A DNA stretch of 62,391 bases from the NCBI GenBank assembly GCA_031414595.1, contig JANNVX010000100.1:1-62391 (forward strand), written 5' to 3'. Shown here piece after piece: positions 3,758 through 49,164 of the stretch. How positions within the stretch are numbered: the first letter of the stretch is position 1; the number at the start of each line of letters is the position of its first letter. The notes beneath the pieces are model-generated. The model had not been told where the DNA came from. It did no database searches and was given only the letters and a program-made list of their open reading frames with translations. The position numbers and the translations under genes were made by a program. This stretch comes from Deinococcales bacterium (GTDB lineage: Bacteria > Deinococcota > Deinococci > Deinococcales > JAAFIG01).

Positions 3758-3830
3758 ACGTCTCGAGGTGTACGGCACATCACGTCTCGAGGTGTACGGC
3801 ACATCACATCTCGAGGTGTCACGTCTCGAG
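3758..3830. repeat. Tandem 24-bp repeat ACGTCTCGAGGTGTACGGCACATC (two full and two partial copies)
   Basis: Read directly; four CTCGAG sites in 73 bp of a divergent intergenic region. Confidence 0.9.
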
Positions 3831-3850
3831 CGCATGGTTTAGAATACGGT

Positions 3851-4657
3851 ATGGCTTTTGCTGACCAACTTTCTGAAATCACCAAAGATTTTTCTGGCAC
3901 AATTGGGCTTTATGCCGTTCGGTTCGAGGATGGTTTTAGCCTTTCAGACAATGCCAAAGAAACATTTCCTGCCGCCAGTGTCATAAAACTGCATTTATTA
4001 ATTGCTGCTTTGCAACGGGTACAAAATGGGCAACTCGAGTTAGACACCCGAATTGCGCTGCCCGAAAGCGAAATTGTGCTTGGCAGTGGTTTACTACAAA
4101 AACTCGAGGCTGGAGCGCTTTTAAGCCTAAAAGATTACTTAACCCTGATGATTATTGTCTCCGATAACACGGCTACAAATATGGTGATTGATTTTCTGGG
4201 TGGGATTGAGTCTATCAACGCCCAACTCGAGACTTGGGATTTAGGCAGTACCCGTGTGGTCGGTAAACTGATGTTGCCCCTAGAACGCAAAAATGAAGCA
4301 CAGAAAGCTGGCAAAATGCACCAAATTGTTCCACTCGAGGTGGTTGGGATTTTACAAGCCTTGTATGGTGGCAGATTGCTCAATCCAGAATTAACAGCTT
4401 TAGCCCTCGAGATTCTTAAAAAACAGGAGTACACCGAAATGATCGGGCGCTTACTGCCAACTGGCACAATCACCGCCACCAAGAGTGGGCAGATTATGGG
4501 GGTGCGAAACGATGTTGGGTTTGTCTTTTCATCTCGAGTCTATGCTGTGGCAATTTGCAGCAAAGACTGCACCGATTTGCGTTATCACATTGACAACGAA
4601 GCGATTTGGACAATTGCCAAAGTCTCGAAACTGATTTTTGAGGTTATGCAAAAATAA
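3851..4657 (+). CDS. Serine hydrolase, class A beta-lactamase-like fold
   Basis: SVIK, SDN and KSG motifs; no signal peptide. Confidence 0.85.
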   Translation: MAFADQLSEITKDFSGTIGLYAVRFEDGFSLSDNAKETFPAASVIKLHLLIAALQRVQNGQLELDTRIALPESEIVLGSGLLQKLEAGALLSLKDYLTLMIIVSDNTATNMVIDFLGGIESINAQLETWDLGSTRVVGKLMLPLERKNEAQKAGKMHQIVPLEVVGILQALYGGRLLNPELTALALEILKKQEYTEMIGRLLPTGTITATKSGQIMGVRNDVGFVFSSRVYAVAICSKDCTDLRYHIDNEAIWTIAKVSKLIFEVMQK

Positions 4658-4697: not shown

Positions 4698-5975
4698 TTA
4701 CTTGGTTGGAATAATTTCGGGTTTGACTTTAATCTCGAGTTCTTTGCCACCACGTACAATGGTCAGGCTCACTTCATCGCCAGCTTTGGAATTATAGACC
4801 ACCCGTTGTAAATCCTCGGCGTTGGTGACATCGCGTCCGTTAATTTTGGTAATCACGTCACCATTGACCGCAATGTTATCCACTTCTCGAGTCGAAGCCC
4901 GCAATCCGGCTTTGGCGGCTGGGCTGCCCGCCTGTACACCACTGAGCATGATGCCACTGGCGGGTAAGTTAAATTGTTTGCGAAAATCTGGTGAAATTTG
5001 GGTCATGTCATAACTAAAGGTAGATACACCTAATCGCGGGCGGCTGGTGGCAATGGTATCTCGATCAATCACTTTGCCAGCTTTTAGGTCTGGCAATAAA
5101 CTGTTTACTAAGTTAATTGGCACAGCAAAGGCAATACCTGCAAATTGTCCAGTGCCAGTCATGCTTGTGCCGGGTGAAAGAATCGCGGTGTTAATACCAA
5201 TCACTTCGCCCGAAGAGTTTAGAAGCGGTCCTCCAGAGTTTCCGGGGTTGACAGCAGCATCGGTTTGAATCACGTTGTTGGCTAAATTCCCACTGCCTTC
5301 AAAGCTGCGTCCAGTGGCGGACACAATTCCTTCAGAAACACTAAACTCGAGTCCGAACGGGTTGCCCATGGCAATGGCTTTCTGCCCAACTTTTAAGGTG
5401 TCCGAATTAGCAAACGGGATTGGCGTGAATTTCTTATTTGGGGCTTCGATTTGAATTAAAGCCACATCGTAAATGGGGCTGCGCCCGACAACTTTAGCTG
5501 AGTATTTTTTAGGGTCGTTGTGAAACTGGACTTGTAATTCGCCTACCGTGTCTGAGTCGAGTGTCACCACATGGTTGTTGGTTAGCATCAAACCAGATTC
5601 ATCAATTACAAAGCCACTGCCCGAACCGCCACCACTCGAGCCACCACGTTGTTGCTGCATACACATCATGTACTGGGTAAAGTCAGATGGGTCGCATTGA
5701 CCAGACACATTTTGTTTTGCCCTGACTTGGATATAGCCAATGCTCTGGTCAAAGCTCTGAACCACTTCGATGGTGTTGCGTTCATTCTCGAGTTTGGCGC
5801 GTCCGTAATCAAAACCTGTACTCGAAGGTGGAGTGTTTATCAGGGTTCGTGTACTTGTATTTGAACCAGAGTTTAACTGCGCGTTACCGATAGGCGGTGA
5901 GAAACTTTGGTACAACACACCAGCCGCCACCAGTGCGGTGAAAACCATTGTTAAAGCCAGAAAGCGATTTTTCAT
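4698..5975 (-). CDS. HtrA/DegP-family serine protease with PDZ domain
   Basis: GSGFVID, TNNHVV, DVALI, QTDAAVNPGNSGGPL, C-terminal PDZ, N-terminal membrane anchor. Confidence 0.95.
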   Translation of the reverse strand: MKNRFLALTMVFTALVAAGVLYQSFSPPIGNAQLNSGSNTSTRTLINTPPSSTGFDYGRAKLENERNTIEVVQSFDQSIGYIQVRAKQNVSGQCDPSDFTQYMMCMQQQRGGSSGGGSGSGFVIDESGLMLTNNHVVTLDSDTVGELQVQFHNDPKKYSAKVVGRSPIYDVALIQIEAPNKKFTPIPFANSDTLKVGQKAIAMGNPFGLEFSVSEGIVSATGRSFEGSGNLANNVIQTDAAVNPGNSGGPLLNSSGEVIGINTAILSPGTSMTGTGQFAGIAFAVPINLVNSLLPDLKAGKVIDRDTIATSRPRLGVSTFSYDMTQISPDFRKQFNLPASGIMLSGVQAGSPAAKAGLRASTREVDNIAVNGDVITKINGRDVTNAEDLQRVVYNSKAGDEVSLTIVRGGKELEIKVKPEIIPTK

Positions 5976-16461: not shown

Positions 16462-16563
16462 ATTCTCTCCACTAAAACTCGAGGCGCATTGTGACACGTT
16501 GTAGGGTAGCAAATGCAAACGCTCGTTCAGGTTTGAGGCTAAAAGATGATTTTCAAGGTTGCG

Positions 16564-18015
16564 TCAGGGATTGCGGTTAAGTTTTTCTTGGACTTGAGCG
16601 AGCGCATCTCGAGTGAATTGGATATTTTCTGGTATATCTCCGCCTTGAATTCTTATGTCAATAGATTTTACAAATGTTTTCTCTGCTTCCTCGAGACGAC
16701 CAGAATCATGTAATACACGACCAAGTATGTGTAATAGGATTCCACGACTCGTCAATGTATCTCCGCCTTGTTCCGCTAATTCCAAACTGGTTCTAAGTGC
16801 TTTTTCCGCTTCCTCGAGACGACCAGAATCATGCAGCACACGACCCAGATAGTCCATTGTGATTCCACGACTTGTTAATGTATCTCCGCCTCGTTCGGCT
16901 AATTCCAAACTGGTTCTAAATGCTTTTTCTGCTTCCTCGAGACGACCAGAATCATGCAGCACACGACCTAGATAGTCCATTGTGATTCCACGACTTGTTA
17001 ATGAAGCATCATCTTTTTCCTGCCATTCTAAACAGACTCTAAGTGCTTTTTCTGCTTCCTCGAGACGACCAGAATGATGTAGTACCTGACCAAGTGCGTG
17101 CATTGTGATTCCACGACTTGTTAATGAATCCTCACCTTGTTCTGCCCATTCCAAACTGGTTCTAAGTGCTTTTTCTGCTTCTTTGAGACGACCCTGAAGC
17201 ATCAAGGTGATACCAATACCAGTTAAAGAACCTACTTTTTCTAGAACTAAAGCGCCAATCATTTCTTCAATTGCCAGCACTTCTCGAGCTACTGCTTCGG
17301 CTTCGACATATCGTTGTCGGTGCATTAAACCACCATAGGCACGTATTAACATCCGAATTAGCATCTTTTCTTCGCCTTTGACCCCGCGCAATTGTGCAGC
17401 CGTCTCGAGGGCAATGTCTGGGTCAAGTAACGCATCGCTCGAATTGTCTTCTTGTAATACTTGCCTACCCATTTCTAGGGCATTTTCTCGCTGCTCGAGG
17501 CGCAAATCACTTAGCATCACTTCTGGTTTTATGTTCACCAGCATTGAACGGATAGACCACCAATCCTTTGCTGACATTTGCAGCACTTCGTTTGTCCAGA
17601 TGGCTGCCACAATAAAAATTGGGATGTTGTAGCGGCGCATCAGTTCGTCCCGCCGTTCATTGACTCGAGCTACAGCGTACTGCCATGCGCTGCGCCATGC
17701 TTGGTGCTGTGGGTCAAACTTGGTGCTAACACTGGCAAGCCAAATTGCTCCTGCGCCTTCTAGGTTTGCGCCCTCGAGTAACCACGGGGCAAATTGAGCT
17801 TGGAGTTCTTCGGGTGTACCAATTTCGATTTGTTCTAAGCGTTGCCCTTTGGTTTTTAAGAACTGCTCGAGAAGCGAGGCACAGACGCGGGCTGCTCCTG
17901 CATCTGGCACTAATATAATGTTGCTCGAGAAACCTGTGCTTAACTCGAGAAAGTCCAGTAAGTACGACCACTCCTCGGCGGCTTGTTTGCCAAATCGGTG
18001 TTCGAGTTCATTCAT
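16564..18015 (-). CDS. TPR-repeat protein with N-terminal degenerate NTPase-like domain
   Basis: 41-aa TPR units SRGITM..LGRVLHDSGRLEEAEKA.R..LE; N-terminus has VNERRDEL...DWWSIR; start overlaps the ATPase stop. Confidence 0.8.
   Translation of the reverse strand: MNELEHRFGKQAAEEWSYLLDFLELSTGFSSNIILVPDAGAARVCASLLEQFLKTKGQRLEQIEIGTPEELQAQFAPWLLEGANLEGAGAIWLASVSTKFDPQHQAWRSAWQYAVARVNERRDELMRRYNIPIFIVAAIWTNEVLQMSAKDWWSIRSMLVNIKPEVMLSDLRLEQRENALEMGRQVLQEDNSSDALLDPDIALETAAQLRGVKGEEKMLIRMLIRAYGGLMHRQRYVEAEAVAREVLAIEEMIGALVLEKVGSLTGIGITLMLQGRLKEAEKALRTSLEWAEQGEDSLTSRGITMHALGQVLHHSGRLEEAEKALRVCLEWQEKDDASLTSRGITMDYLGRVLHDSGRLEEAEKAFRTSLELAERGGDTLTSRGITMDYLGRVLHDSGRLEEAEKALRTSLELAEQGGDTLTSRGILLHILGRVLHDSGRLEEAEKTFVKSIDIRIQGGDIPENIQFTRDALAQVQEKLNRNP
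16660..17200. repeat. 123-bp tandem coding repeats in the TPR gene
   Basis: GCTTCCTCGAGACGACCAGAAT at 16685, 16808, 16931 and 17054; variant copy at 17177. Confidence 0.9.
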
Positions 18016-19339
18016 TTTCTTTTTGGAGTTCTGCAACGATTCGTTTGGCTTCAGGGAGAATCATTTGGTGTGCATCGTACCATTCGTCGCCGTTTTTGAA
18101 GAACAAAATCATGTGTGAATCAATCAGTAATTTAATACGGTCAATTTCGGCGCTTTCAGGGTTTACGGTGCGGGTTCGGGCAATTTCTTCAATCACAATG
18201 GCTTTACTTTGACTCAAGGGTAAGTAATTATTACGAATTTGACGGGTGGCACTCTCGAGAATGGTTGTTTTGACTGGGAAATTGCGTTGACTACGAACAC
18301 TGGCTTCGTAGACCATGCGAAACAAATCGCGGATGTCTCCACTACTGGCACGAATTAAAATTTCGGCGGCTGCATCTGGGTCTGCGCCGAAGAAACGAGT
18401 CCAGGCGTTTGGTTCAACGGCTTCAAAACGCTTTTTGAGCAGCTTAGTAAGCCTTGCAATGCCTTCTTTTTTCTCGGTACGTTCTGGATTGTTACGCCAG
18501 AGTCGTACTCCTGAAAGCATGGTGGTGTCACCCTCGAGTGGTCTTAAAAATTTAAGCCACGGTGGAATGGTGTAAATCATGTGGACATAAGGTAATGCCA
18601 GTTTTGCTCGGTGATTCTGAAAAATAAATTCAATGCTTTTTTGGACATTTAATTGCGATTGTTCATCTGAGCCTTCGATTTTTTCTAGGTTATCGAAAAT
18701 AAAAATAATTTCTTTGTCACCACGTTCGTCTCGAATTGTTGCGACAACTTGTTCAAAATACCTGCGAATTTCGGAATTGAGTTGTTCTACATGGGTTTCA
18801 AAGGCTTTACGAAAACGGGTGCGGAATGTTTCGTTGCCTTTTAGTTCTAAGTTGACACTGGCAAAGTCCATACTCAAACCAAGTTCGGTTATTTTTACAT
18901 CGGTTCGTTTTAGGTAATCGGTTAGCCTATCCCACAAGTCCTTGAGTTTACTTTCGGGATTTTTGACAAAGCCTCCAAAAGCAACAGCAATGGTGTAGAG
19001 CAAATCAGTAATATTGATTGGTGCATTTTTGGAGATAAATTGGTTTGCATCGGCGTAAAGGGCAATGTAACCTTCTGCCTCGAGTTTACCCACCAATTGA
19101 TTTAAGAGTGTACTTTTGCCTGAGCCACGAAAGCCAGAAAAAAACTGAATGCTTTCTCTGGTGATTTGATTGGCTCGGATTCGCTCGAGCATGGATTCGG
19201 TTGGTTCGATATACCCATCTTCGTCATCAGGGTACGGTTCGTAAAGCGGCACGTACAATTTACTATGCGCCTCGAGTGGTTTCTCGGGTTTTAATTGCAC
19301 AGTCAGGTGTTGCAAAAATTCCAAATCGGTGTACGGCAT
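18008..19339 (-). CDS. P-loop ATPase (AAA+/STAND/KAP-like)
   Basis: Walker A GFRGSGKST, Walker B IFIFDNLEK, GDIRDL; C-terminal FKNGDEWYDAH. Confidence 0.8.
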   Translation of the reverse strand: MPYTDLEFLQHLTVQLKPEKPLEAHSKLYVPLYEPYPDDEDGYIEPTESMLERIRANQITRESIQFFSGFRGSGKSTLLNQLVGKLEAEGYIALYADANQFISKNAPINITDLLYTIAVAFGGFVKNPESKLKDLWDRLTDYLKRTDVKITELGLSMDFASVNLELKGNETFRTRFRKAFETHVEQLNSEIRRYFEQVVATIRDERGDKEIIFIFDNLEKIEGSDEQSQLNVQKSIEFIFQNHRAKLALPYVHMIYTIPPWLKFLRPLEGDTTMLSGVRLWRNNPERTEKKEGIARLTKLLKKRFEAVEPNAWTRFFGADPDAAAEILIRASSGDIRDLFRMVYEASVRSQRNFPVKTTILESATRQIRNNYLPLSQSKAIVIEEIARTRTVNPESAEIDRIKLLIDSHMILFFKNGDEWYDAHQMILPEAKRIVAELQKENE

Positions 19340-33137: not shown

Positions 33138-34085
33138 GTGACCCTAGGCTTTTTGTTGCGCCGAGTTTTAACTGCCCTGATGACGCTACTGCTTGCCAGT
33201 GTGATGGTCTTTTTTGCAATGCTGCTTGTTCCCGGCGACCCTGTGCAACTGATTCTTGGCTTAAATTATGACCCAAACCAATATGCGGTGCTGCAAAAAC
33301 AATTGGGTTTGGATAAACCACCACTCGAGCGGTTCTTGGTCTGGCTGGCTGGAATCCCGCAAGGCGACCTAGGCAAAAGCATCAGTTTAAGTAAAGAAGT
33401 GAGTACCTTAATCTGGGATAGGCTACCGATTACCCTGCCTTTGGTTGGACTCTCGAGCCTGCTGGCACTGGTTATTGCCCTACCTGCCGGAGTTTATGCG
33501 GCTCGGCACAGGGGCAGCCTTGCCGATGTACTGGTTGTGACCCTGACCCAAATTGGACTGGCGATTCCGAGTTTCTGGCTTGGGATTATGTTTGTGCTGC
33601 TTTTTGCCGTCACCCTTGGTTGGCTACCCGCCAATGGCTGGACAAACTGGTCAGACGACCCGCTCAAAGCCGCCCGTAGCCTCGTCATGCCTGTGCTGAC
33701 CTTGGCGCTTGGACAAGCGGCTGGACTGGTACGGATGGTGCGTTCTAGTGTGATTGAAACCCAAAGCCAAGACTTTGTTCGCACTGCCCGTTCCAAGGGT
33801 TTACTCGAGGGTGTGGTGATTCGTAAGCATATTTTACGTAACGCAGCCATTAACATCATCACGCTGCTTGGGATTCAATTTGGGCAATTACTGGCTGGCG
33901 GAATTGTGGTTGAAAGTGTTTTTAATATCCCTGGACTGGGCTTACTTGGCTTAGGCGCAGTTCGCTTTGGCGATTATCCTTTGGTGCAGGGCGTGGTTTT
34001 TGTGATTGCGGCGATGATTGTTTTTATTAACTTAATTGTTGACCTGATGTACGGCGCACTTGACCCTAGAATTCGTTACGACTGA
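33138..34085 (+). CDS. Peptide/nickel ABC transporter permease, DppB-like
   Basis: VPGDP, LGLDKP, DFVRTARSKGL EAA loop, DPRIRY. Confidence 0.92.
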   Translation: MTLGFLLRRVLTALMTLLLASVMVFFAMLLVPGDPVQLILGLNYDPNQYAVLQKQLGLDKPPLERFLVWLAGIPQGDLGKSISLSKEVSTLIWDRLPITLPLVGLSSLLALVIALPAGVYAARHRGSLADVLVVTLTQIGLAIPSFWLGIMFVLLFAVTLGWLPANGWTNWSDDPLKAARSLVMPVLTLALGQAAGLVRMVRSSVIETQSQDFVRTARSKGLLEGVVIRKHILRNAAINIITLLGIQFGQLLAGGIVVESVFNIPGLGLLGLGAVRFGDYPLVQGVVFVIAAMIVFINLIVDLMYGALDPRIRYD

Positions 34086-34528
34086 TTCTGGGCTTCAGCC
34101 ACCCACAATGGCACAAGCCCAGACACCAAAATTCGTTTCTCGAGTTGCAAATCAAAAGTAAGAAATTGCAAATCACTGGATAGTGAATGGAGCGTAACAG
34201 CCGTTGCGACATGAACAGCATCGCAACCTTTGAGTAAATGCGTATCGGCTAATGCACCCGCTAACAACGCCAAAGGATGACTGACCTGTAAGGACTGAAC
34301 CATTTTCCAGTCACGTTCAAAATCATGGCTTGCTTGAATAAATTCTTTTTGGGTAATGCGTTTGTTGTGCCGCAAAGACCGAAAAGCCGCCCGAACTTCG
34401 GCATAAGTAATCACACTCGAGGCGGTTGTTTGCGCCTGAGCAATCGCTTGCCCAGTCAGCACTGCATGGTTAGGATTGTCATTGGCGTACAAAGATACAA
34501 AAGCATTGCTGTCAATGTAAAGTTTCAC
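34076..34528 (-). CDS. PIN-domain (VapC-like) toxin
   Basis: LYIDSNAFV, YAEVRAA, LKGCDAVHVATA, FLTFDLQL. Confidence 0.88.
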   Translation of the reverse strand: MKLYIDSNAFVSLYANDNPNHAVLTGQAIAQAQTTASSVITYAEVRAAFRSLRHNKRITQKEFIQASHDFERDWKMVQSLQVSHPLALLAGALADTHLLKGCDAVHVATAVTLHSLSSDLQFLTFDLQLEKRILVSGLVPLWVAEAQNQS

Positions 34529-34920
34529 CGCCGTCCATCCCGAATAATTTCAACGATACTTGAGCCAGTACCACGAATCCGCACCGACCCAATCGAGCCA
34601 ATCGGTTTACCAGTCATACTCGCTTTTTTAACAGTCTTAGCTGCATTTGCCACCAACAAAGCAAAATCGGGTTCTTTGGTCGTCTCTAAAAATGCCTCAT
34701 TTGGGGTTGTTTCAAGTAAATCGTTAATTGTGACGGGTTGACCAATAATTTTCTCGAGGGCAGTAATAACTTGTCCTACAGTAGCCAAGTCAATTCGCTG
34801 AGCCGGTTTTCTAGCAAGGTCGTAAATGGTATTGGGCGATAGGGTCGTTTCTTTAACAATTCGGTAAGGACTGACCGCATGTTGTACCAGAAATTTATTT
34901 AGATTCAAACGGATGTTCAT
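34525..34920 (-). CDS. Xre/Cro-type HTH protein, putative antitoxin
   Basis: VSPYRIVKETTLSPNTIYDL..RIDLAT HTH; C-terminal SIVEIIRDGRR; GTGA overlap with the PIN gene. Confidence 0.75.
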   Translation of the reverse strand: MNIRLNLNKFLVQHAVSPYRIVKETTLSPNTIYDLARKPAQRIDLATVGQVITALEKIIGQPVTINDLLETTPNEAFLETTKEPDFALLVANAAKTVKKASMTGKPIGSIGSVRIRGTGSSIVEIIRDGRR

Positions 34921-34930
34921 AATTTACGAA

Positions 34931-34966
34931 TATATCATACTCCGATAAGTTGCGTAGTATGATATA
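34931..34966. promoter_or_regulatory. Perfect 11-bp inverted repeat, putative autoregulatory operator
   Basis: TATATCATACT-N14-AGTATGATATA just upstream of the HTH gene. Confidence 0.65.
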
Positions 34967-35024
34967 GGTTGTTTCTCAAAAAGCATTGCATCGGCTCGAG
35001 TCACCACTTAGAATGACTTCGGAT

Positions 35025-35384
35025 ATGAGTTCAACAACTTCTACAATTCATGACCCAGCGCCAAGACGCTTACCTACCGATATGCCGACATTAAAACAAA
35101 TCGCGGCTCGAGTGGCAGAATTTACTGGGGCAAAAAAAGTGATTGTCTTTGGCAGTGTGGCACGTGGCGACACTAACGAAAACAGTGACCTTGACTTACT
35201 TTTATTGCTCGAGGATGGTGCTAATTTATGGGATGCAGCCCTAAAAGCCCAAGATGCCTTTTGCCCAAGGTACTTTCCAATGGATTTTGTGCCGATGACC
35301 TTATCGCAGTTCAAAGAAAACAACACGCCACTGGCAATTGTCGTGGCTCGAGAAGGAAAGGTGTTATATGGCAAATCCGCGTGA
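35025..35384 (+). CDS. Minimal nucleotidyltransferase (MntA-type antitoxin family)
   Basis: VFGSVARGD..ENSDLDLL, REGKVLYG; start uncertain. Confidence 0.85.
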   Translation: MSSTTSTIHDPAPRRLPTDMPTLKQIAARVAEFTGAKKVIVFGSVARGDTNENSDLDLLLLLEDGANLWDAALKAQDAFCPRYFPMDFVPMTLSQFKENNTPLAIVVAREGKVLYGKSA

Positions 35385-35421
35385 TTATGCAAGGCATGAA
35401 CTCAAATTGGAAACCGAATGA
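35368..35421 (+). pseudogene. Possible truncated HEPN-partner remnant (MANPRDYARHELKLETE*)
   Basis: 17-codon ORF with a purine-rich RBS overlapping the nucleotidyltransferase end, where a HEPN gene normally lies. Confidence 0.35.
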
Positions 35422-35486
35422 ACTCGAGGCAATAAAGTGTTGACTTCGTATACAATTGTTATCATGAAGATTTTGCGAGTAAAACC

Positions 35487-36584
35487 ATGATTGCTCAAAT
35501 TAGTTTACCCACTGCAACTAAGCAACGCTTAGGGCTACCAAAGCAGCCTTTACTCAATCAAATCACTTGTGGCGATAGTGCCGTACTTCTAAAAAATCTT
35601 AGCAGCGACAGTATTGATTTGGTCATTACCTCACCTCCTTATTTTCAGCAGCGTGATTATGGCAGTGGTGGTATTGGCAACGAAAAGAGCTCAGAAGATT
35701 ATATTGCTGCCCTACTCGAGATTTTTAAGGAATGCGTGCGCGTTCTTAAGCCTACTGGTAGCATTATTTTTAACTTAGGCGACAAATACGAAGATGGAAG
35801 CCTGATGATGCTCCCATACCGTTTTGCCATTGCAGCCACCAACCAAACAAAGGTGAGTTTAGTCAATCAAATCACTTGGTTAAAAACCAATCCAACACCA
35901 CGGCAATTTAAGCGCCGTTTGGTCAGCAGTACAGAACCATTTTTTCATTTTGTAAAATCAAACACTTATCAGTATTTTATTGATGATTACTTAGCGCCAC
36001 TGGAAATGACCAAGCCAACCAGTGCTGGGGGAAATGTTGGACAAAAATACTTTGGCTTAATTGAGCAATCCAATTTGACCGATGCACAAAAAACAATGGC
36101 GCGTGATGCACTCGAGCAGATTATTGAAGAAGTTAAACGAGGTGAGCTTCAAGGTTTTCGGATGAAAATCCGAGGAATACACTCCGAGCCTTTTGGCGGG
36201 CAAGAAGGTGGACGAAAAATTCAACTTGATAAAAATGGGTTTACCTTGATTCGTGTTTATGGCAACCCGCTTAAAAAAGATGCGCTAATTTCGCCTGTTG
36301 AATCCATTAAGAATTGTCCACACCCTGCTATTTATCCTGTTAAAATCATTGCCGAGTTGATTAAATTACTGACTCGAGAAGGGGATATTGTGCTTGACCC
36401 GTTTCTTGGGTCGGGTTCAACTGCGGTGGCAGCGGTGCAGAATAAACGCCAGTACATCGGTTTTGAAATTAGTCAAGAATACTGTGATTTTGCCAGACAG
36501 CGTTTAGAAAATTTATCAACATCAAAACCCATCGCTAAGCAACAACTTGCTTTTTGGGAGAATTATGCCAGTCCATCCAAATGA
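35487..36584 (+). CDS. Beta-class amino DNA methyltransferase (probably N4-cytosine)
   Basis: ITSPPY before HPAIYP and LDPFLGSGST. Confidence 0.9.
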   Translation: MIAQISLPTATKQRLGLPKQPLLNQITCGDSAVLLKNLSSDSIDLVITSPPYFQQRDYGSGGIGNEKSSEDYIAALLEIFKECVRVLKPTGSIIFNLGDKYEDGSLMMLPYRFAIAATNQTKVSLVNQITWLKTNPTPRQFKRRLVSSTEPFFHFVKSNTYQYFIDDYLAPLEMTKPTSAGGNVGQKYFGLIEQSNLTDAQKTMARDALEQIIEEVKRGELQGFRMKIRGIHSEPFGGQEGGRKIQLDKNGFTLIRVYGNPLKKDALISPVESIKNCPHPAIYPVKIIAELIKLLTREGDIVLDPFLGSGSTAVAAVQNKRQYIGFEISQEYCDFARQRLENLSTSKPIAKQQLAFWENYASPSK

Positions 36585-37701
36585 AATTTTAGAAACGGCT
36601 TTGCAGACCGCTCGAGAAAATCCCAAGATTCAATTGCCAAATGATTGTCTGCAAAATCTTAAAATCATCGTGCAGAATGCAGATAAACAAAAAGCTGTCC
36701 TTGGTGCAACACTGACTTCATCGGCTTATAAAATTTTTAATCCGAATCAGGACATTCGATTACACCAAGAAGGCATGGTGGGTGGTTATTCAGCCAGAAC
36801 CTTCGATACCAAGTTTATGACCCCTTTTGTAAGAAAATACTTCCCACATTTTGCAATGGCAGAAAGTGCTTGGCTAACACGTTCGCTCGAGCAGCCTCAT
36901 CCTTTTACACTGGATTTTCCCGGTAAAATCCGTAACCCATTATTAAAAACAGCTTTTTTGCAAGTCATGGATTTTCTCGAGCAGTATCCAAATCAAGCTG
37001 TCAATGTGCTATCTGGTTTGTTTGTATTGCTATTTGAAATCACAAAAGATGATGATTTGTTATTTGAGGTTTTAGAAACAAACGAAGTCAGTATTACCAA
37101 AATAATAGATGCGATTACTCAACACATCAGATATTCTTATCCACAAGGAACAGTTGGTACAGCACGACTTCCAGTGCTTGCGATGTATGCTATTTACCGC
37201 CTATTACTACCAGACTTAAAGCGTTATGAAGGTAAAATACTCGCGCCGCTCGAGTCCCATACCAGCCCAGATTCGCGTTCTAAAGCCTTGGGGGACATTG
37301 ATATTCTCAATACCAATCAAAGCTCTTTTGAGGCTGTTGAAATTAAGCATAATAAACCCATTAGTGCCGAAATGATTGATCTTGCTTATCAAAAAATCAA
37401 AACAAGTCAGACAGACCGTTACTATATTCTGACAACCAATGAACCAAACGTATCTGACCAAACCTTGGTCACTCAAACAATCGAAAAATACAAACAACGT
37501 CACGCTTGCCAGTTTATTGTGAATGGCGTGATACCGTCCTTAAAGTATTATTTAAGGCTCATTAGTCAACCACAAGAATTTTTAGCTGAGTACACGCATT
37601 TACTCGAAACAGAGTTTAAGCGCGGTAGTGGTATTAAGAAACAGCATTTGCAAGTTTGGCAGCAGATTTGTCAAACTGTTTTGAATCAGGATACCCCATG
37701 A
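36565..37701 (+). CDS. Putative type II restriction endonuclease, PD-(D/E)xK
   Basis: GDIDI...EAVEIK catalytic-like motif; overlaps the methyltransferase gene. Confidence 0.75.
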   Translation: MPVHPNEILETALQTARENPKIQLPNDCLQNLKIIVQNADKQKAVLGATLTSSAYKIFNPNQDIRLHQEGMVGGYSARTFDTKFMTPFVRKYFPHFAMAESAWLTRSLEQPHPFTLDFPGKIRNPLLKTAFLQVMDFLEQYPNQAVNVLSGLFVLLFEITKDDDLLFEVLETNEVSITKIIDAITQHIRYSYPQGTVGTARLPVLAMYAIYRLLLPDLKRYEGKILAPLESHTSPDSRSKALGDIDILNTNQSSFEAVEIKHNKPISAEMIDLAYQKIKTSQTDRYYILTTNEPNVSDQTLVTQTIEKYKQRHACQFIVNGVIPSLKYYLRLISQPQEFLAEYTHLLETEFKRGSGIKKQHLQVWQQICQTVLNQDTP

Positions 37702-38549
37702 ATCAAATCACCTCTCAAACTCCAGAACTCGAGCCTAAGCCCACGGCACGTCTCGAGTTTAACTTGCTGTTTGGTTTTGCCACCCTTGGCTTGCTGCTTT
37801 TTGCGGCGCTGCTGGGTTTAATTTGGACTCCGCACAACCCAACATTTCAGAATTTTGCGGTACAACTGCAAAGCCCAAGCCTGACTTATCCACTTGGCAC
37901 AGATAACTTTGGACGCGACACTTTATCCAGATTGCTGCGTGGCGCAAGTACCAGTGTTCTGGTGGGTTTAATCAGTGTTGGCATCGGCTCGAGCCTAGGC
38001 TTGTTGCTGGGCATGATTTCAGGCTGGCTTGGCGGGTTAATAGATGACATTATCATGCGAATTTTGGACGCACTTTCGGCGTTTCCAACGATTTTACTGG
38101 CACTTTTAATCGCTGTTATTCTCCGCCCGAACATTTGGAGTGCCATGCTTGCCGTGGGAATCTCGAGTATCCCAACCTTTGCACGACTGACTCGAGCCGG
38201 TGTCATTGCCACCAAAAACCTAGATTTTATTGATAGCGCCAGAGCTTTAGGCGCTCGAGATGCCCGTTTGATGTTCAGGCATGTCTTGCCCAATATCGCT
38301 TCGGCATTGATTGTTCAAGCCACTTTTGCCTTTGGCATTGCAATTCTAGCCGAAGCTGCGCTTTCTTACCTTGGGCTTGGGACGCAACCCCCCGCCCCAA
38401 GTTGGGGTGTGATGCTGCGCGATGCCCAAACCTTTATTTACCAGAGTGCTTGGGCAACGATTTTTCCCGGTTTAACGATAGCCATAACCGTACTAGGACT
38501 TAATTTATTAGGTGATGGACTGCGTGACCGACTTGACCCTCGGCGTTAA
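37698..38549 (+). CDS. Peptide/nickel ABC transporter permease, DppC-like
   Basis: PLGTDNFGRD, FIDSARALGA, LSYLGLG..PSWG, NLLGDGLRD. Confidence 0.92.
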   Translation: MNQITSQTPELEPKPTARLEFNLLFGFATLGLLLFAALLGLIWTPHNPTFQNFAVQLQSPSLTYPLGTDNFGRDTLSRLLRGASTSVLVGLISVGIGSSLGLLLGMISGWLGGLIDDIIMRILDALSAFPTILLALLIAVILRPNIWSAMLAVGISSIPTFARLTRAGVIATKNLDFIDSARALGARDARLMFRHVLPNIASALIVQATFAFGIAILAEAALSYLGLGTQPPAPSWGVMLRDAQTFIYQSAWATIFPGLTIAITVLGLNLLGDGLRDRLDPRR

Positions 38550-40704: not shown

Positions 40705-40771
40705 AGACTCGCTCATCGAGATTCGGTACACTAATACTCAGTCGCCAATGCGACATTTTAAGGAGAAAATC

Positions 40772-41374
40772 ATGAAATACGAATTACCAGCCCTGACCTA
40801 CGCCCATGATGCCCTAGAGCCTCATATTGACACCGCCACGATGCAGATTCATCATGGCAAGCACCATCAAGCCTATGTCAATAACTTAAACGCTGCCCTC
40901 GAGAAACACCCCGAATTTGACATGCCACTCGAGACGATGCTACACGACCTGAGTCAAGTACCGGAAAGCATTCGTGGTGCAGTTCGTAACAACGGCGGCG
41001 GACATTATAACCATGCTTTTTTCTGGACTTTGATGACCCCCGGCGGCTCGAGTAGCCCCGTTGGTGGGCTGTCCGAAGCAATTACGGCAATGGGTGGTTT
41101 AGACACCCTAAAAGAAAAAATCAATACCGCAGGAGCAACCCGTTTTGGTTCAGGTTGGGCTTGGCTTGTGGTTAAAAACGGGGCATTGGAAGTGCTTTCA
41201 ACCGCCAACCAAGATACCCCGCTCGAGTTAGGTGCAAAACCAGTTTTGGCTGTCGATGTTTGGGAACATGCTTATTACCTGAACTATCAAAATTTGCGTC
41301 CAAAGTACCTCGAGTCTTGGTGGAATGTGGTCAATTGGGATATGGCAGAAAAGAATTACCAAGCTGCTAAGTAA
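40772..41374 (+). CDS. sodA: Superoxide dismutase, Mn-type
   Basis: [31 protein letters not shown]. Confidence 0.93.
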
Positions 41375-41386
41375 ATGTATATTTGC

Positions 41387-41416
41387 AATCACCTCAGTTT
41401 TTGGGGTGATTTTTTT
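41387..41416 (+). terminator. Rho-independent terminator after sodA
   Basis: AATCACCTCA/TGGGGTGATT stem followed by a T run. Confidence 0.75.
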
Positions 41417-41515
41417 ATATCTAAACACAAAACGCAACAAGCCTTGATTTTTCGAGAATCGCGACTTAGGGTAAAAAAATACTTTCTCTGACTATATTGT
41501 TTCGCTCTGAGCCAT

Positions 41516-41547
41516 GTTGCGATCTTGTCACGCTAGATTTGTACACT
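41516..41547 (+). promoter_or_regulatory. Promoter box GTTGCGAT-N3-GTCACG-N9-TACACT
   Basis: Same architecture recurs at 43562-43593. Confidence 0.6.
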
Positions 41548-41554
41548 TCATACA

Positions 41555-41661
41555 CATTCTCGAGTCACCCTCTCCCAAGTGACTCGAGGATGCCCAAAAA
41601 AAGTCTCGAGAGTACAGCGCTTCATCGCCGCCTCGAGCAAGGAGAATTTATGAAAAAATTG
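41555..41661 (+). repeat. Two-hairpin leader element, copy A
   Basis: Aligns with 42410-42501. Confidence 0.8.
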
Positions 41662-42402
41662 ATTCCATTGTTAGCCCTAACCGCCGCGATTTTGACCGCT
41701 TGCCCAACACCACAACCTGCTGGTACAGCCGTGCCAACCACTGGCGGCACAGTCAGTAGCAGCGATACGCAAGCCTCGTTGGTTGCGCCCAGTGCCACAG
41801 CAGGAACATTTGTCACGGTTACACCCTTGAGCGACCAAGGGCAAATACCGTCAGGTTTGACATTTGTTCGTGCCTATAATTTCCAAGTCACGGCGGGTTC
41901 AGTCCCCAGCGCGACCATCAGTTTCGCGGTCAATAATGCGGGCGTGAGCAAAGCTACAAGCAATGCCATTCGGTTGTTCCGCCGCGATGGTGTTTATTGG
42001 CGCTATGTGGAAGAACAGATTAGTGTCAAAGGCGCACTCCGGGCAACAGTTCAGACTTACGGTGTTTATGGTGTAATGAGCGGTGTTGCCACGATTAAAG
42101 ATATTGTCCTGACCCCAAACCCAGTCAGTTTGACCGTCGGAAATACCCAACAAATGACCGCCGTTGTGCGTGACAGCTTAAACCAACCGATGCCAAGCGT
42201 GGATAGCGCCATCACTTGGAATCTCGAGAGTCAAACATTGGCAGGCGCAATACCGCAAGCCCTTGAGGTCGTTGGGGTCAACACCATTAGCGCTACAGGT
42301 TTATTCACCGCCAATGCCGTCGCCACCGACAAAATCATTGCCACCACCAATCAAAATGTTGAAGTCCGTGTCCCAGTTACCGTGACCAAAGGAATCAAAT
42401 AG
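41650..42402 (+). CDS. Lipoprotein with C-terminal Ig-like (Big_2-like) domain
   Basis: AAGGAG RBS, lipobox LTAC, IVLTPNPVSLTVGNTQQMTA. Confidence 0.75.
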   Translation: MKKLIPLLALTAAILTACPTPQPAGTAVPTTGGTVSSSDTQASLVAPSATAGTFVTVTPLSDQGQIPSGLTFVRAYNFQVTAGSVPSATISFAVNNAGVSKATSNAIRLFRRDGVYWRYVEEQISVKGALRATVQTYGVYGVMSGVATIKDIVLTPNPVSLTVGNTQQMTAVVRDSLNQPMPSVDSAITWNLESQTLAGAIPQALEVVGVNTISATGLFTANAVATDKIIATTNQNVEVRVPVTVTKGIK

Positions 42403-42409
42403 GCTGACT

Positions 42410-42501
42410 CATCCTCGAGTCACCATGACTCGAGGATACCAAAAAAGTCTTGAGGCTACGGTATCGCCGTCTCGAGCAAGGAGAAAACCATGAAAAAATT
42501 G
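42410..42501 (+). repeat. Two-hairpin leader element, copy B
   Basis: Aligns with 41555-41661. Confidence 0.8.
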
Positions 42502-43122
42502 TTGATTGCCGCTACGCTATTCGTCTCGAGCCTCGCGCTTGCTCAAGCGGATTTTAGTAAGGGTCTGGCAGGTGTGATTCAAACTTTGGCTTCGGAGGAT
42601 ATGTTCTTTACGGGCATTGAAATCCCAACCCTCAAAAAACTGATGGGCAACCCAATCAAAGAAGATACTGTGACCTATAACCTCAAAGACGCGGGTGGAT
42701 TTGAAATGAGTTACCGCGTTAAGAAAAGCCAAGGCTTTGTGCAAATTTTTGAGAGCAAGATGACCTACTGGGTGACTTTTGCCGCCTTCCTGACCTCGGA
42801 TGATATTTTGGTGGGCATGGTCACCAGCGCCCAAAAAGCCAGCAATGGACGCGGCAACGACCTCCAGTTTTTTAGCATTGCTAAGAAAAAGCCAGTCTCG
42901 CCGGTTGGTGCAAAATGGTACAAAGCTGTGACCGATTTTGCCAATGGCAAGTGCAAAGTGCCAATCGAGAACATTCACTTTGAACTCAAAGAAAACGCTG
43001 ACGACATTAAAATTTCGGGCTTTGACATTTTCTTAACAGGCAAAAAATACACCCTCAGTGGTGTGCTGAAATTTGGTGAAAAAGGCGAAATTAGCTTTGA
43101 CCCGAAAACCGCCAAGTGCTAA
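42490..43122 (+). CDS. Secreted hypothetical protein
   Basis: AAGGAG RBS, signal peptide ending ALA. Confidence 0.75.
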   Translation: MKKLLIAATLFVSSLALAQADFSKGLAGVIQTLASEDMFFTGIEIPTLKKLMGNPIKEDTVTYNLKDAGGFEMSYRVKKSQGFVQIFESKMTYWVTFAAFLTSDDILVGMVTSAQKASNGRGNDLQFFSIAKKKPVSPVGAKWYKAVTDFANGKCKVPIENIHFELKENADDIKISGFDIFLTGKKYTLSGVLKFGEKGEISFDPKTAKC

Positions 43123-43132
43123 GGAATGTGCA

Positions 43133-43561
43133 ATGAATAAAACCATTCTCTTGCTATTCTCGAGCTTACTGATTTTGGCTTTTACTCAACATGGTCTGAG
43201 CCAAAATACAGATTTGGGTTCGATTACTACGCCGACTGGCAATATTTTTTGTCGGGTCGAAAAGGTCGCTGGCAGTACACTGCTCACTTGCCAAGTCTCA
43301 CAAAGTACGGCGGTTATTCCGCCAAAACCCAAAGACTGTAACCTCGAGTGGGGTAATCGTTTCCTCATGAGTGAACGCGGTAAGCCAGAGCGAGCTTGTT
43401 ATGGTGATGTGCTGTATAGCCCTAGCTTAAAGCGGCTCGAGTACGGGCAGACCCGGAAGATGGCTGGCTTTACTTGTGATTTAACCACGGCTCGTTTGCG
43501 CTGCGTCAACCTAGAGAAACACGGTTTTGAGCTTTCAAAAGCTGTTCAGAAACTGTTTTAA
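43133..43561 (+). CDS. Secreted Cys-rich protein, DUF6636-like
   Basis: TTPTGNIFC...LEYGQT...GFTC...LRCVN..HGFELS. Confidence 0.65.
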   Translation: MNKTILLLFSSLLILAFTQHGLSQNTDLGSITTPTGNIFCRVEKVAGSTLLTCQVSQSTAVIPPKPKDCNLEWGNRFLMSERGKPERACYGDVLYSPSLKRLEYGQTRKMAGFTCDLTTARLRCVNLEKHGFELSKAVQKLF

Positions 43562-43593
43562 GTTGCGATTTAGTCACGATACATCCTTAAACT
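43562..43593 (+). promoter_or_regulatory. Promoter box GTTGCGAT-N3-GTCACG-N9-TAAACT
   Basis: 15/17 identical to 41516-41532, same spacing to the -10-like hexamer. Confidence 0.6.
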
Positions 43594-43624
43594 ATTTAAA
43601 TCTCGAACCTCGATAAGGAGAACG

Positions 43625-45055
43625 ATGAAAAAAGGTCTACTTGCACTGTCTTTGCTGGCGCTAACTGGCGTAGCACTGGCACAATTTAATCAGAATCGGA
43701 ATTTGCCAACCAAATTCCCAATAGATTGCCGCGCTCTTGACCGTCGCCCGACCAGCCCAGCCGAAGCTGTCCAGAATTGGAACTTTCGCTGCCAGCGCCT
43801 CGCTGACCAATGGGGCAAAGGCGCACGTTTTGGCACGGGTATTGGACCCGCTCAATTGATGACTGGCTTCCCAACCAAACCCGGCTCGAGCCGCTATTAC
43901 GGCGGATTTTTAGACAATGCCAAGCGCAAAATTTACATTGGTAGCACTTGGTCAGATAACCGCGATGTTGGCGGCAACCCAGACTTAAAAAACTTTGGTG
44001 TGATTTACGAAGTGGACATTGACTGGTCAAAACCAGAAACAGTCGGCAACCGCAAAGTGATTTCTGGGAAATATCTCTCGAGACAAGGCGATGTGGATGT
44101 CGGTTCTGGTGATACCTTACGCACGGTGCGAACCATCAAACGCGGCAAGGACGGCATGTTCTATGCTTTTACATATGACTCGGGCAATGTGTCCACGATT
44201 ATGAAAGTAGACCCGACGACAGGAAACCGCACCACCGTCTGGACGGAAAAAGCCATTTTGTACTCTGACAAACCTGAATTTCCCAAAGACCAATGCGAAC
44301 AAGGCAGCGTGCCTCAAGCCCCCGGCGTGATGGGCAGTGTACCCGCAAGCTCGAGACGAAGTAAACAAATCAACACTGGTTTTGCGCCATTTGAAATGAA
44401 CCCCAACACTGGCGAGTTCTACCTGATTCCAAACCCTGGCACAGGACCATTTGGGATTATGAAAATTTCTGCCGACGGCAAAGAATGCTCTTGGGTGACA
44501 CGCATGAAAGCTCAGGGCAACAACCGTTACACCGACAATGCCGAAAATAAAGCCAAAGCAGATTATGGTTTGCCCAATGGCTCTGGTCCAAGGGGTACGG
44601 GTATCACCAACATGACCTTCCCCGGTACAAACATTTATTTTCATGAAATTAAGGGTAAGCAATGGCTCTACGTATCATCAGGCAATACCTACTGGCGTGC
44701 CGATGTTGATACTGGCAACCGTGAACAGGTCATGCAGCAAGAACCCGGTGATTCCTACAGTGTCTGGGACCCTGTTCGTAACTTCCTTTGGACAAGTGGC
44801 ACAGGCAACGGTTCGGGTATTGCACCAGTCACGATTAACGATGAAGACAATCCAAAACTTGGCGGTAATATATTCTGCATGAACCCAACTGCTGCATGGT
44901 TTCAGTGTGTTCGTGGCGTTGGCGAAGCAGGACCCATGCTGCGCGGCGGCTTGTTCTTAGACCCAGCCGATGGAAATTTAATCATGGCGCACGATGCAGT
45001 TGGCTTGGTACGAATCGAAGTTACAACAGGCAACACCTACACATTTTCGTTGTAG
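43625..45055 (+). CDS. Secreted hypothetical protein, probable beta-propeller
   Basis: Signal peptide; repeated xVDxxTGNR blade ends. Confidence 0.7.
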   Translation: MKKGLLALSLLALTGVALAQFNQNRNLPTKFPIDCRALDRRPTSPAEAVQNWNFRCQRLADQWGKGARFGTGIGPAQLMTGFPTKPGSSRYYGGFLDNAKRKIYIGSTWSDNRDVGGNPDLKNFGVIYEVDIDWSKPETVGNRKVISGKYLSRQGDVDVGSGDTLRTVRTIKRGKDGMFYAFTYDSGNVSTIMKVDPTTGNRTTVWTEKAILYSDKPEFPKDQCEQGSVPQAPGVMGSVPASSRRSKQINTGFAPFEMNPNTGEFYLIPNPGTGPFGIMKISADGKECSWVTRMKAQGNNRYTDNAENKAKADYGLPNGSGPRGTGITNMTFPGTNIYFHEIKGKQWLYVSSGNTYWRADVDTGNREQVMQQEPGDSYSVWDPVRNFLWTSGTGNGSGIAPVTINDEDNPKLGGNIFCMNPTAAWFQCVRGVGEAGPMLRGGLFLDPADGNLIMAHDAVGLVRIEVTTGNTYTFSL

Positions 45056-48636: not shown

Positions 48637-49164
48637 TTATTTCAAATCAAATGAAACTTTAATCTGGTCTGTGCCTACCAACGTAGATTTTAGTGACAAG
48701 GTAAAGCTCTTAAAGCTCAGACTTGCCTCGAGACCTTTATCCATCATTGTGCCGCCCATTGCATCGGCTGGTTTGTCCATTGCTCCACCTGGTTTGTCCA
48801 TTGCGCCACCCGGTTTGTCCATTGCTCCATCGGCTGGCTTGTCCATTGCGGCGGCTGGTTTGTCCATTGCTCCACCCATCATCGCATCGCCGCCCATATG
48901 GGTTACTTTCCAACCTTGTTTTGCAAAAGCAGTTTCATGGAACTTAAAAGGTTCGGCGGCATCCTTACCTTTGTAGACCAAAACAACACTTTTACCAGAG
49001 TTACTGCGTGTCAAAATTGGTAGTTGTGTGTAAGCAGCGATATTGACCACTTCGCCAGTCACCCGACCATTTTGCAAAGCACTCGAGGTTAAACGCAGAG
49101 CAGGAGCAGCGAGGGCGATTCCACCAACGACAACAGCAGCAAGAGCTAAAGCAATACGATTCAT
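48637..49164 (-). CDS. Secreted protein with Met-rich AMDKP repeats
   Basis: Signal peptide, five AMDKP units, AGGAG RBS. Confidence 0.8.
   Translation of the reverse strand: MNRIALALAAVVVGGIALAAPALRLTSSALQNGRVTGEVVNIAAYTQLPILTRSNSGKSVVLVYKGKDAAEPFKFHETAFAKQGWKVTHMGGDAMMGGAMDKPAAAMDKPADGAMDKPGGAMDKPGGAMDKPADAMGGTMMDKGLEASLSFKSFTLSLKSTLVGTDQIKVSFDLK

Follow-up and report, generated by a model that had tools for sequence, protein, structure and literature searches.

The 62,391-nucleotide (nt) contig JANNVX010000100.1 from a Deinococcales bacterium (assembly GCA_031414595.1; hereafter, the window) carries two copies of a two-hairpin sequence, each placed directly before one of two consecutive genes for exported proteins, gene A and gene B. 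Comparison with related loci indicates that the copies belong to a small, lineage-restricted and unnamed family of predicted mRNA leaders in a clade of low-GC uncultured Deinococcales, and that this family serves a co-regulated, variable array of exported-protein genes. As predicted from sequence, a full leader consists, in order, of a first hairpin of 12–15 pairs (HP1), an A-rich or variable spacer, a second hairpin formed by two CTCGAG words (HP2), an AAGGAG-type Shine–Dalgarno (SD) sequence and an AUG AAA AAA start.

A family of two-hairpin leaders in exported-protein gene arrays

Copy A (41555–41661) and copy B (42410–42501) share 82% mean column identity over 132 columns. Their 23-nt 3′ block, ATCGCCGYCTCGAGCAAGGAGAA, has two occurrences in the window, a number that does not rise when up to three mismatches are allowed, and none in 100 shuffles. 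On the + strand, each copy comprises the long HP1, an A-rich single strand and the short HP2, whose 3′ arm stops two bases short of AAGGAGAA, followed by an ATG AAA AAA TTG start. The folding energy is −33.6 kcal/mol for copy A (z = −4.39) and −31.4 kcal/mol for copy B (z = −5.56), with 0 of 200 shuffles folding as well in either case; the − strand folds are weaker (z = −2.67 and −2.21, respectively). Copy A starts 7 nt after a TAnnnT box, and copy B starts 7 nt after the TAG stop of gene A (42400–42402). A preliminary description of this DNA had reported the shared blocks, the two-hairpin stretch before consecutive exported-protein genes, the start of copy A about 7 nt after a −10-like box, and the position of copy B directly behind the previous stop. 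All of the blocks are present, and the account was correct in every main point, including its view that the downstream proteins are unrelated (no BLASTP similarity; best E = 42).

Relatives of the window were located with an alignment of gene B homologs (n = 21, 51–94% identity, one of them named as from a Deinococcales metagenome-assembled genome (MAG)), which was run against genome contigs. This search returned seven loci (L001–L007), all from Deinococcales or Deinococcota MAGs. Taken with ~10 kb on each side, these loci and the window provide eight sources and a total of 150,787 nt. A covariance model, R1, built from seven leaders aligned with MAFFT, gave 53 matches at E ≤ 10 over this sequence, among them 10 full copies at E ≤ 2e-8 in five of the eight sources. 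Three of the full copies had not been used to build R1: L007:8394-8490 (67.8 bits), L006:8987-9081 (52.8 bits) and L006:14354-14449 (40.7 bits). Another three copies are partial, being HP2 only or miniature (L005:864-983, L003:2846-2947 and L006:9946-10012).

All full copies lie on the gene strand within arrays, and matches on the − strand merely mirror the palindrome of HP1. Within the 150,787 nt, the leader is thus not scattered in both orientations as a dispersed repeat or miniature inverted-repeat transposable element would be. An AAGGAG-type SD follows HP2 by 0–6 nt in 10 of 10 full copies. At least four unrelated families stand behind these copies, namely gene A-type lipoproteins, gene B, a 283-amino-acid (aa) family and a paralog of a 476-aa exported protein; the first group includes a 665-aa protein that matches gene A in its first 25 residues only. 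CTCGAG followed within 10 nt by RGGAG and a start codon was found in 17 cases, 16 of which are real starts, all of array genes. When the 38 strong-SD starts were considered instead, CTCGAG was present within 16 nt upstream in 15 (14 array genes and one spurious start) and at no non-array gene.

No Rfam 15 family matched at its gathering score anywhere in the window, and a permissive scan of 41350–42650 reached at best 22.8 bits against a gathering score of 44. Rfam also gave no leader match on the seven loci; its sole result there was a thiamine pyrophosphate (TPP) riboswitch elsewhere in L002 (9681–9770, − strand, 58.1 bits, above the Rfam gathering score). A blastn search of plasmid and phage collections found no match for 41500–41665. 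The preliminary proposal of an unnamed structured leader, which was to fall if only two copies without covariation existed, is upheld by the covariance model and the Rfam searches: 10 full copies in five of eight sources, four compensated pairs and no Rfam family at threshold.

Both helices were recovered independently by RNAalifold (−25.4 kcal/mol, with a covariation term of only −0.28), and folding predicted HP1 in 10 of 10 full copies. In the seven-sequence MAFFT alignment, 88.7% of cells pair, compared with 22–39% when the partners are slid; the corresponding values for a 10-sequence alignment are 90.5% and 26–42%. The latter contains four compensated pairs (six cells), all of them in HP1, and its covariation score was reached by 21 of 500 shuffles. 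Among single-side changes in the helix cores, six leave a G-U pair on the sense strand, compared with one or two that leave A-C (antisense G-U). The HP1 loop measures 3–10 nt and the two HP2 words are spaced by 1–22 nt among the copies, a variability that fits RNA pairing better than a fixed protein–DNA site. The support that these alignments lend to pairing in the sense-strand RNA appears real but modest.

Sequence conservation was assessed against neighboring neutral sites. When the window is compared with L006, identity is 45% at 4-fold degenerate sites; HP1 matches at 30 of 38 positions, its stem being compensated, and at 18 of 26 once CTCGAG is left out; CTCGAG positions in the leader are kept in four of four cases, and coding CTCGAG words are shared in three of 10. 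Between the window and L003, copy A HP1 is identical at 37 of 38 positions. By such comparisons, the HP1 of copy A is conserved beyond neutral sites and that of copy B is not.

The leader occurs in two settings. An exact match to the promoter box GTTGCG-N5-GTCACG was found in the window at 41516 and 43562 only and eight times in the loci, all on the array strand, while the relaxed form RTTRCG-N5-RTYRCG has 13 matches (window, L003, L004, L005, L006 and L007), located before exported-protein units. The layout of box, 9–10 nt and TAnnnT hexamer holds for 13 of 13 boxes, and in 10 of the 13 promoters a CTCGAG-containing hairpin starts 5–13 nt after the hexamer. Six of the 10 full copies follow such a promoter block, with HP1 starting 5–9 nt after the hexamer and therefore at the predicted first nucleotides of the transcript. 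The other four have no box and start 7–14 nt after an upstream stop (copy B, L001B, L003B and L006:8987). An HP1 loop of the form C[U/C/A]CUCCCA is present in five of six promoter-proximal copies and in none of the four intercistronic ones. In the second promoter segment of the window, the CTCGAG pair has decayed to CTCGAA (43602–43607) and CTCGAT (43609–43614), where relatives have CTCGAG-A-CTCGAG. The box is probably an activator site replacing the −35 element, and its 11-nt period suggests a winged-helix-type activator. A gene for a BTAD + AAA regulator adjoins the array in L006 (287–3553, − strand), and a 26%-identical relative of its product is encoded beside the array in L003 (8632–9768). 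This BTAD/AAA protein may act at the promoter box.

The order of genes in the window is sodA, gene A, gene B, a DUF6636 gene, a gene for the 476-aa exported protein and a hydrolase gene; coordinates are collected in Table 1. An intrinsic terminator behind sodA separates the transcription unit of the leader from that gene, and translation identifies the ATG at 41650 as the true start of gene A. The Pfam scan covered 51 open reading frames (ORFs) of the window (seven including gene A, 41650–42399, and 44 more) plus one L006 ORF, and the window ORFs of this set, at the thresholds used, are those to which the statements below on integrase, recombinase and CsrA families apply. Gene B matched no Pfam or NCBIfam family. 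Its predicted structure (predicted local distance difference test score 83.7) has as its best fold match an uncharacterized domain, 2p3p, at a template modeling (TM) score of ~0.5. The 476-aa protein has no Pfam family, and Atlas gave only weak β-propeller leads for it; NCBIfam gave no match for gene A, gene B or the 476-aa protein.

Table 1 Features of the leader region and the exported-protein array in the window
Feature	Position	Strand	Description	Support
sodA intrinsic terminator	41387..41417	+	11-pair stem and T run; sodA at 40748-41374 (SodA domains, Pfam)	
Promoter box	41516..41532	+	Direct repeat GTTGCG-N5-GTCACG, 11-nt period	
−10-like hexamer	41542..41547	+	TACACT; 9 nt after box, 7 nt before HP1	
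Copy A HP1	41555..41592	+	14-pair stem, 41555-41568 with 41579-41592; 10-nt loop containing CUCCCA	Folding; compensatory changes in relatives
Copy A spacer	41593..41604	+	A-rich; unpaired in minimum free energy and centroid structures	
Copy A HP2	41605..41637	+	CTCGAG 41605-41610 pairs with CTCGAG 41632-41637	
Copy A SD and start	41639..41652	+	AAGGAGAA at 41639-41646; gene A ATG 41650	
Gene A	41650..42402	+	250 aa, lipoprotein-like exported protein; Pfam Big_2 E = 0.0044, below curated cutoff	
Copy B HP1	42410..42438	+	12-pair stem, 42411-42422 with 42426-42437; 3-nt loop	
Copy B spacer	42439..42448	+	A-rich; copy-A type, unlike the same junction in L001 and L003	
Copy B HP2	42449..42476	+	CTTGAG 42449-42454 with CTCGAG 42471-42476; one G-U pair	
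Copy B SD and start	42478..42492	+	AAGGAGAA; gene B ATG 42490	
Gene B	42490..43122	+	210 aa, exported, signal peptide	
DUF6636 exported-protein gene	43133..43561	+	Third array gene; present or absent among relatives	
Second promoter segment	43562..43624	+	Box 43562-43578; −10-like TAAACT 43588-43593; SD before 476-aa gene	
476-aa exported-protein gene	43625..45055	+	Fourth array gene	

Gene content differs among the relatives, as it should if the downstream genes vary between strains, a check that had been suggested beforehand. DUF6636 is absent from L001 and L005; L004, L006 and L007 have gene B without gene A upstream; and L006 carries a long array of further exported-protein genes. The window, L001 and L003 have the leader between gene A and gene B, and gene A is bounded by leader copies on both sides in the window and L003. 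The leader together with the first 25 codons (signal peptide and lipobox) is common to 41650–41724 and L006 6979–7053 (80% amino-acid identity), and the mature proteins behind this shared start differ, one being the 250-aa protein with its weak Big_2 match and the other the 665-aa lipoprotein.

Within the window, neither the covariance model nor a whole-window repeat search yielded a third leader copy. The third member reported by the repeat search, at 22990, is a 74% chance match. A weak half-copy that had been suspected at about 34995–35024 also looks like chance: its 11-mer, CTCGAGTCACC, occurs five times in the window, its fold is no better than shuffles (z = +0.85), and R1 did not report it at E ≤ 10. 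A model match at 3758–3851 (22.5 bits) has a different architecture, a 24-nt tandem repeat carrying CTCGAG. This unit is present in two exact copies (3758–3781 and 3782–3805) with one CTCGAG each, further CTCGAG words follow at 3810 and 3825, and the run as a whole (3758–3830) lies just upstream of a beta-lactamase-family ORF (3851–4654).

A leader peptide was considered and rejected: an in-frame ATG, at 41590, is found in copy A only; that of L003A lies in another frame, and copy B lacks it. HP1 is flanked by an A run after it on the + strand and a T run before it on the − strand. A terminator scan was silent at 41555–41592 and 42410–42438 on both strands, and the reading of HP1 as an intrinsic terminator was rejected because there is no U run. 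Two other repeats lie elsewhere in the window. Five copies of a 123-nt-period repeat (16549–17286) are found inside a gene for a TPR-repeat protein (16567–18036, − strand), and a 21-nt-period repeat (GGTTTGTCCATTGC-like, 48741–48898) is found inside a 175-aa ORF without a family (48640–49164, − strand).

CTCGAG as a genome-wide background

The word from which the hairpins are formed is abundant far beyond the leader. CTCGAG occurs 321 times in the window, compared with 7.37 ± 2.58 expected; none of 100 shuffles had more than 15. No hexamer of the window is commoner. The sites lack a flanking consensus, and the median distance between them is 150 nt. With a crude set of 51 ORFs, coding DNA holds 5.1 sites per kb and non-coding DNA 6.2, and 178 of 296 coding sites are read as CTC GAG. 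The seven related loci have 4.8–6.3 CTCGAG per kb, the observed/expected ratio (O/E) in the pooled 150,787 nt is 46, and ~70% of all TCGA lie within CTCGAG. As a control, the first 50 kb of Deinococcus radiodurans plasmid MP1 contain eight CTCGAG. Orthologs of the 476-aa gene show that the word arises by synonymous multi-base recoding (CTA AGT CGT versus CTC TCG AGA, both Leu-Ser-Arg). The deamination-type variants CTTGAG and CTCAAG are not depleted (O/E 1.06), and there is therefore no support for a simple mismatch-repair origin. CTCGAG thus has the properties of a highly iterated palindrome, namely a tens-fold excess in coding and non-coding DNA across a clade.

This background changes how the leader should be read. 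Because the word is palindromic, any two nearby CTCGAG pair on paper, and a genome-wide iterated palindrome can mislead a local reading in that two neighboring words mimic a designed hairpin. Clusters are no commoner than chance would give: four runs of at least four CTCGAG within 110 nt were observed, compared with 5.3 for random placement of 321 sites. The earlier suggestion that the leader is "built from CTCGAG" as a special principle is accordingly withdrawn, since the word is genome-wide. Nevertheless, among the 72 CTCGAG pairs of the window that lie no more than 60 nt apart, the perfect stems of the two HP1 (12 and 10 pairs) rank first and joint second. The local peculiarity is the extended HP1 stem, not the CTCGAG content.

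Our literature search found no account of CTCGAG over-representation, which is not proof that none exists; where CTCGAG is mentioned, it is as a methylation motif of other organisms. We consider the genome-wide excess a more surprising feature than the leader itself.

Certain other palindromes are scarce. GGCC is strongly avoided (two sites versus 265 expected), GTCGAC is absent (0 versus 9.4 expected), and AGGCCT, CGGCCG, GGGCCC and TGGCCA do not occur in the pooled 150,787 nt. This scarcity looks like strong restriction avoidance. An island at 34079–37698, between two ABC-permease genes (33138–34082 and 37656–38546), encodes a PIN-domain protein, a 131-aa ORF with a weak helix-turn-helix match and an MntA-like nucleotidyltransferase, together with a predicted type II N6/N4 DNA methyltransferase (35487–36581). 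A 384-aa ORF without a family overlaps the methyltransferase gene and possibly represents its endonuclease partner.

Proposed function and competing explanations

We tentatively favor, at slightly less than an even chance, the reading that the leader is an mRNA-protecting and ribosome-site-presenting element that acts in the sense RNA. HP1 would shield the 5′ end of the mRNA from 5′-end-dependent decay and, when intercistronic as in copy B, would guard the ends left by processing, namely the 3′ end of the RNA upstream and the 5′ end of the RNA downstream. HP2 would occupy the nucleotides immediately before the SD and thereby keep the ribosome site accessible. The outcome would be long-lived, well-translated messages for secreted proteins, with CTCGAG arms that may have been drawn from the hyper-abundant palindrome of the clade as ready-made self-complementary words. 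According to the review PMC3997798, bacterial mRNAs are stabilized by a hairpin or ribosome site located at the 5′ end or close to it. If the leader works as proposed, it would be the first defined post-transcriptional element for a secreted-protein regulon in Deinococcota and a compact natural expression leader.

A number of observations weigh against this proposal. Both the −10 box and the transcript start are predicted, and a sigma-70 consensus scan did not call the promoter of copy A. At the gene A/gene B junction, the leader is absent in L002, whose gene B protein is 95% identical, and in L005, with the stop running straight into the SD; it is also absent before gene B in L004 and is thus dispensable. 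Between the window and L003, copy B HP1 is identical at 25 of 29 positions, no better than the synonymous sites of gene B (69 of 80). The covariation is limited in several respects: the seven-sequence alignment has two compensated pairs, a number reached by 170 of 500 shuffles; the 10-sequence alignment is fitted to R1; and HP2 has no compensated pair, its pairing being automatic for a palindrome that is present twice and owes its abundance to other causes. When all non-Watson–Crick cells are counted, G-U (nine) and A-C (seven) are about equal, with 13 others. The predicted accessibility of the SD (probability unpaired) is only 0.06–0.56, and a role in exposing the ribosome binding site is therefore not evident from folding. 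Moreover, the restriction of the family to arrays holds for the 150,787 nt only.

The leader could instead be a translational or regulatory switch, in which the anti-SD-like CUCCCA of the HP1 loop pairs either with the SD or with the SD-like GGGAG that HP2 displays in its loop, or in which a small RNA or a CsrA-type GGA-binding protein acts on the loops and sets translation of the exported-protein regulon. We regard this as unlikely. In its favor, the loop motif persists in five of six promoter-proximal copies, and in none of the four intercistronic ones, while the stem beneath it varies. An (A/C)GGGAGU HP2 loop, or one close to it, is found in five of 10 full copies and in L005A, and GGGAG is complementary to CUCCC. 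In copy A of the window and in L003A, UCUCC of the loop can pair with GGAGA of the SD. The equivalent pairing is possible in L006:14354, which has ACUCC in the loop and GGAGU as its SD, both sides having changed to match. The layout of CsrA targets also has GGA in a hairpin loop together with GGA in the SD; such a layout is seen in five of 10 full copies but in neither copy of the window, where no CsrA-like family was found among the scanned ORFs. L006A (U opposite U) and L007:8394 (SD AGGAU) lack the match between loop and SD, and GGGAG is kept without the loop motif (L001B and L005A) and absent with it (copy A and L006:14354), so the two elements do not co-vary. Any pyrimidine-rich CUCC loop complements any SD by nature, and only about three independent lineages are available. 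Somewhat less probable still is that the leader has no function of its own and is a by-product of the drive that creates CTCGAG, combined with duplication of a promoter–leader–signal-peptide block. This would account for the 46-fold over-representation of the word, for 72 close pairs and clusters no commoner than by random placement, for the lack of covariation in HP2, for the neutral-like conservation of copy B HP1, and for the missing leader in L002 and L005. Against it stand the four pairs at which non-CTCGAG positions of the HP1 stem are kept by compensatory change, HP1 stems that rank first and joint second of the 72, and CTCGAG beside the SD at 14 array genes versus no others. Against L006, moreover, CTCGAG is kept at four of four leader positions versus three of 10 in coding DNA, and the non-CTCGAG columns of HP1 (18 of 26) exceed the identity of 4-fold sites (45%).

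The variable arrays raise the question of whether the leader acts at the DNA level, as homology for inserting, stacking, swapping and losing exported-protein genes, with the hairpins incidental; we consider this improbable. Array content differs among the eight sources (DUF6636, gene A and the extra L006 genes), gene A is flanked by leaders on both sides in the window and L003, the leader of the 283-aa gene has a promoter in L007 and none in L006, the leader and 25 codons are common to gene A and an otherwise different 665-aa lipoprotein, and conversion tracts between copies A and B are found within one genome. However, ordinary homologous recombination between repeated leaders gives the same pattern without selection for a site. 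The scanned ORFs of the window include no integrase, transposase or recombinase family, and the leader lacks terminal inverted repeats and target duplications. All copies have one orientation and stand directly before start codons with the SD included, compensatory stem changes are unneeded for homologous recombination, and leaderless junctions exist (L002 and L005). The earlier idea of a cassette-joining site, if taken as a dedicated site in the integron sense, has no support on two of these grounds, namely the lack of an integrase-type family in the 51 scanned ORFs and the absence of the element from the same junction in L002 and L005. We would place slightly lower again a composite view in which CTCGAG was co-opted as a stem module and the leader is a self-contained regulon switch, with CUCCCA as a cis anti-SD that alternates between the SD and a GGGAG decoy in the second hairpin, and with the leader also providing homology for stacking and exchanging genes between strains. 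It is very improbable, by comparison, that HP1 is a DNA operator, that is, an inverted repeat over the transcript start that is bound by a dimeric repressor or read via CTCGAG methylation. An inverted repeat with 13-nt arms does lie directly after the −10 box in five promoters, and the window encodes the predicted type II methyltransferase (35487–36581). This reading is unlikely because the arm spacing varies: spacings of 3–10 nt, and inner arms that differ between copies, would not be tolerated by a dimeric DNA binder. Four copies lie inside operons without a promoter, and G-U pairs are kept on the sense strand.

Exchange between leaders nevertheless appears to have shaped copy B. Its spacer is identical to that of L003A at 10 of 10 positions and to that of its own ortholog, L003B, at six of 14. 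The HP2 loop of copy A is enlarged (21 nt versus 5–7 nt in relatives), and this enlargement is common to both window copies and absent from both L003 copies; copy A shares 21 of 33 HP2 columns with copy B and 15 of 33 with L003A. The A-type spacer and the shared enlarged loop are the signature of a gene conversion event in this lineage, with copy A as donor and copy B as recipient. Most likely, copy B arose by recombination between leaders and was then partly overwritten by copy A. We infer the following order of events from these comparisons: copy B, which has no promoter box, would be the former leader of gene B or a recombined copy, left in place when gene A came to lie upstream, and its spacer and HP2 would later have been overwritten from copy A by gene conversion.

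Comparison with known systems

Among known elements, the leaders of Escherichia coli ompA and Bacillus aprE appear to be the nearest analogs. The 5′ untranslated region (UTR) of ompA has a 5′-terminal hairpin, a single-stranded segment and a second hairpin beside the ribosome site; Emory (1992) and Arnold (1998), which PMC3997798 lists among its references, are the primary papers. The leader described here has a corresponding arrangement of predicted terminal hairpin, A/U-rich single strand, second hairpin and ribosome site before an exported-protein gene, and its proposed action, 5′-end protection with a protected ribosome site, would be the same. It differs in that there is no sequence or Rfam relationship, the stems come from a genome-wide palindrome, copies also occur inside operons, and its transcript start and stabilizing effect are predictions.

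The aprE leader combines a 5′ stem-loop with ribosome binding, and STAB-SD is an SD-like sequence in the 5′ UTR. The principle of 5′ stabilizers applies to organisms with RNase J, which Deinococcus has. Similarly, the leader combines a predicted 5′ stem-loop with a strong SD, which stands close behind HP2 in 10 of 10 full copies; five of the 10 carry an additional SD-like word, GGGAG, ahead of the true SD. Unlike STAB-SD, this SD-like word is located in a hairpin loop of 5–7 nt rather than in open RNA, and it is missing from the two window copies. Stabilizers of this kind in Bacillus are covered by a general statement in PMC3997798.

Copy B and the three other intercistronic copies place a stable hairpin 7–14 nt after a stop within an operon. 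In this they resemble the intercistronic stem-loops of the repetitive extragenic palindrome (REP)/bacterial interspersed mosaic element (BIME) type, which protect upstream mRNA segments, for example in malE-malF. The leader is not dispersed as those elements are; in the sequence surveyed it is confined to arrays, has one orientation and is always joined to an SD and a start. Integron attC sites are imperfect inverted repeats between stacked cassettes, and the leader likewise forms imperfect inverted repeats between stacked, variable genes of unrelated function. It differs from attC in carrying the ribosome site of the downstream gene instead of ending the upstream cassette, and some copies have promoters; no integrase was found in the Pfam-scanned window ORFs, and no attC-type core sites were seen.

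The CTCGAG word itself is best compared with highly iterated palindrome 1 (HIP1) of cyanobacteria, which occurs at 300–2,700 per Mb according to the figures in Elhai 2015 (PMC4390886); the highly iterated palindromes of cyanobacteria are also treated in PMC5861425. CTCGAG differs in having six letters rather than eight, in belonging to another phylum, in being denser (~5,100–5,500 per Mb) and in that no linked orphan methyltransferase was identified for it in the sequence analyzed. Like HIP1, it is a short palindrome in strong excess (O/E 43–46) that is found in coding and non-coding DNA, extends across a clade and is introduced via synonymous codon choice. At about one site per 190 bases in eight related genomes, and not in the MP1 sequence checked, CTCGAG represents a HIP1-like phenomenon outside cyanobacteria at higher density, and it could allow the long-standing question of why such palindromes accumulate to be tested in a second lineage.

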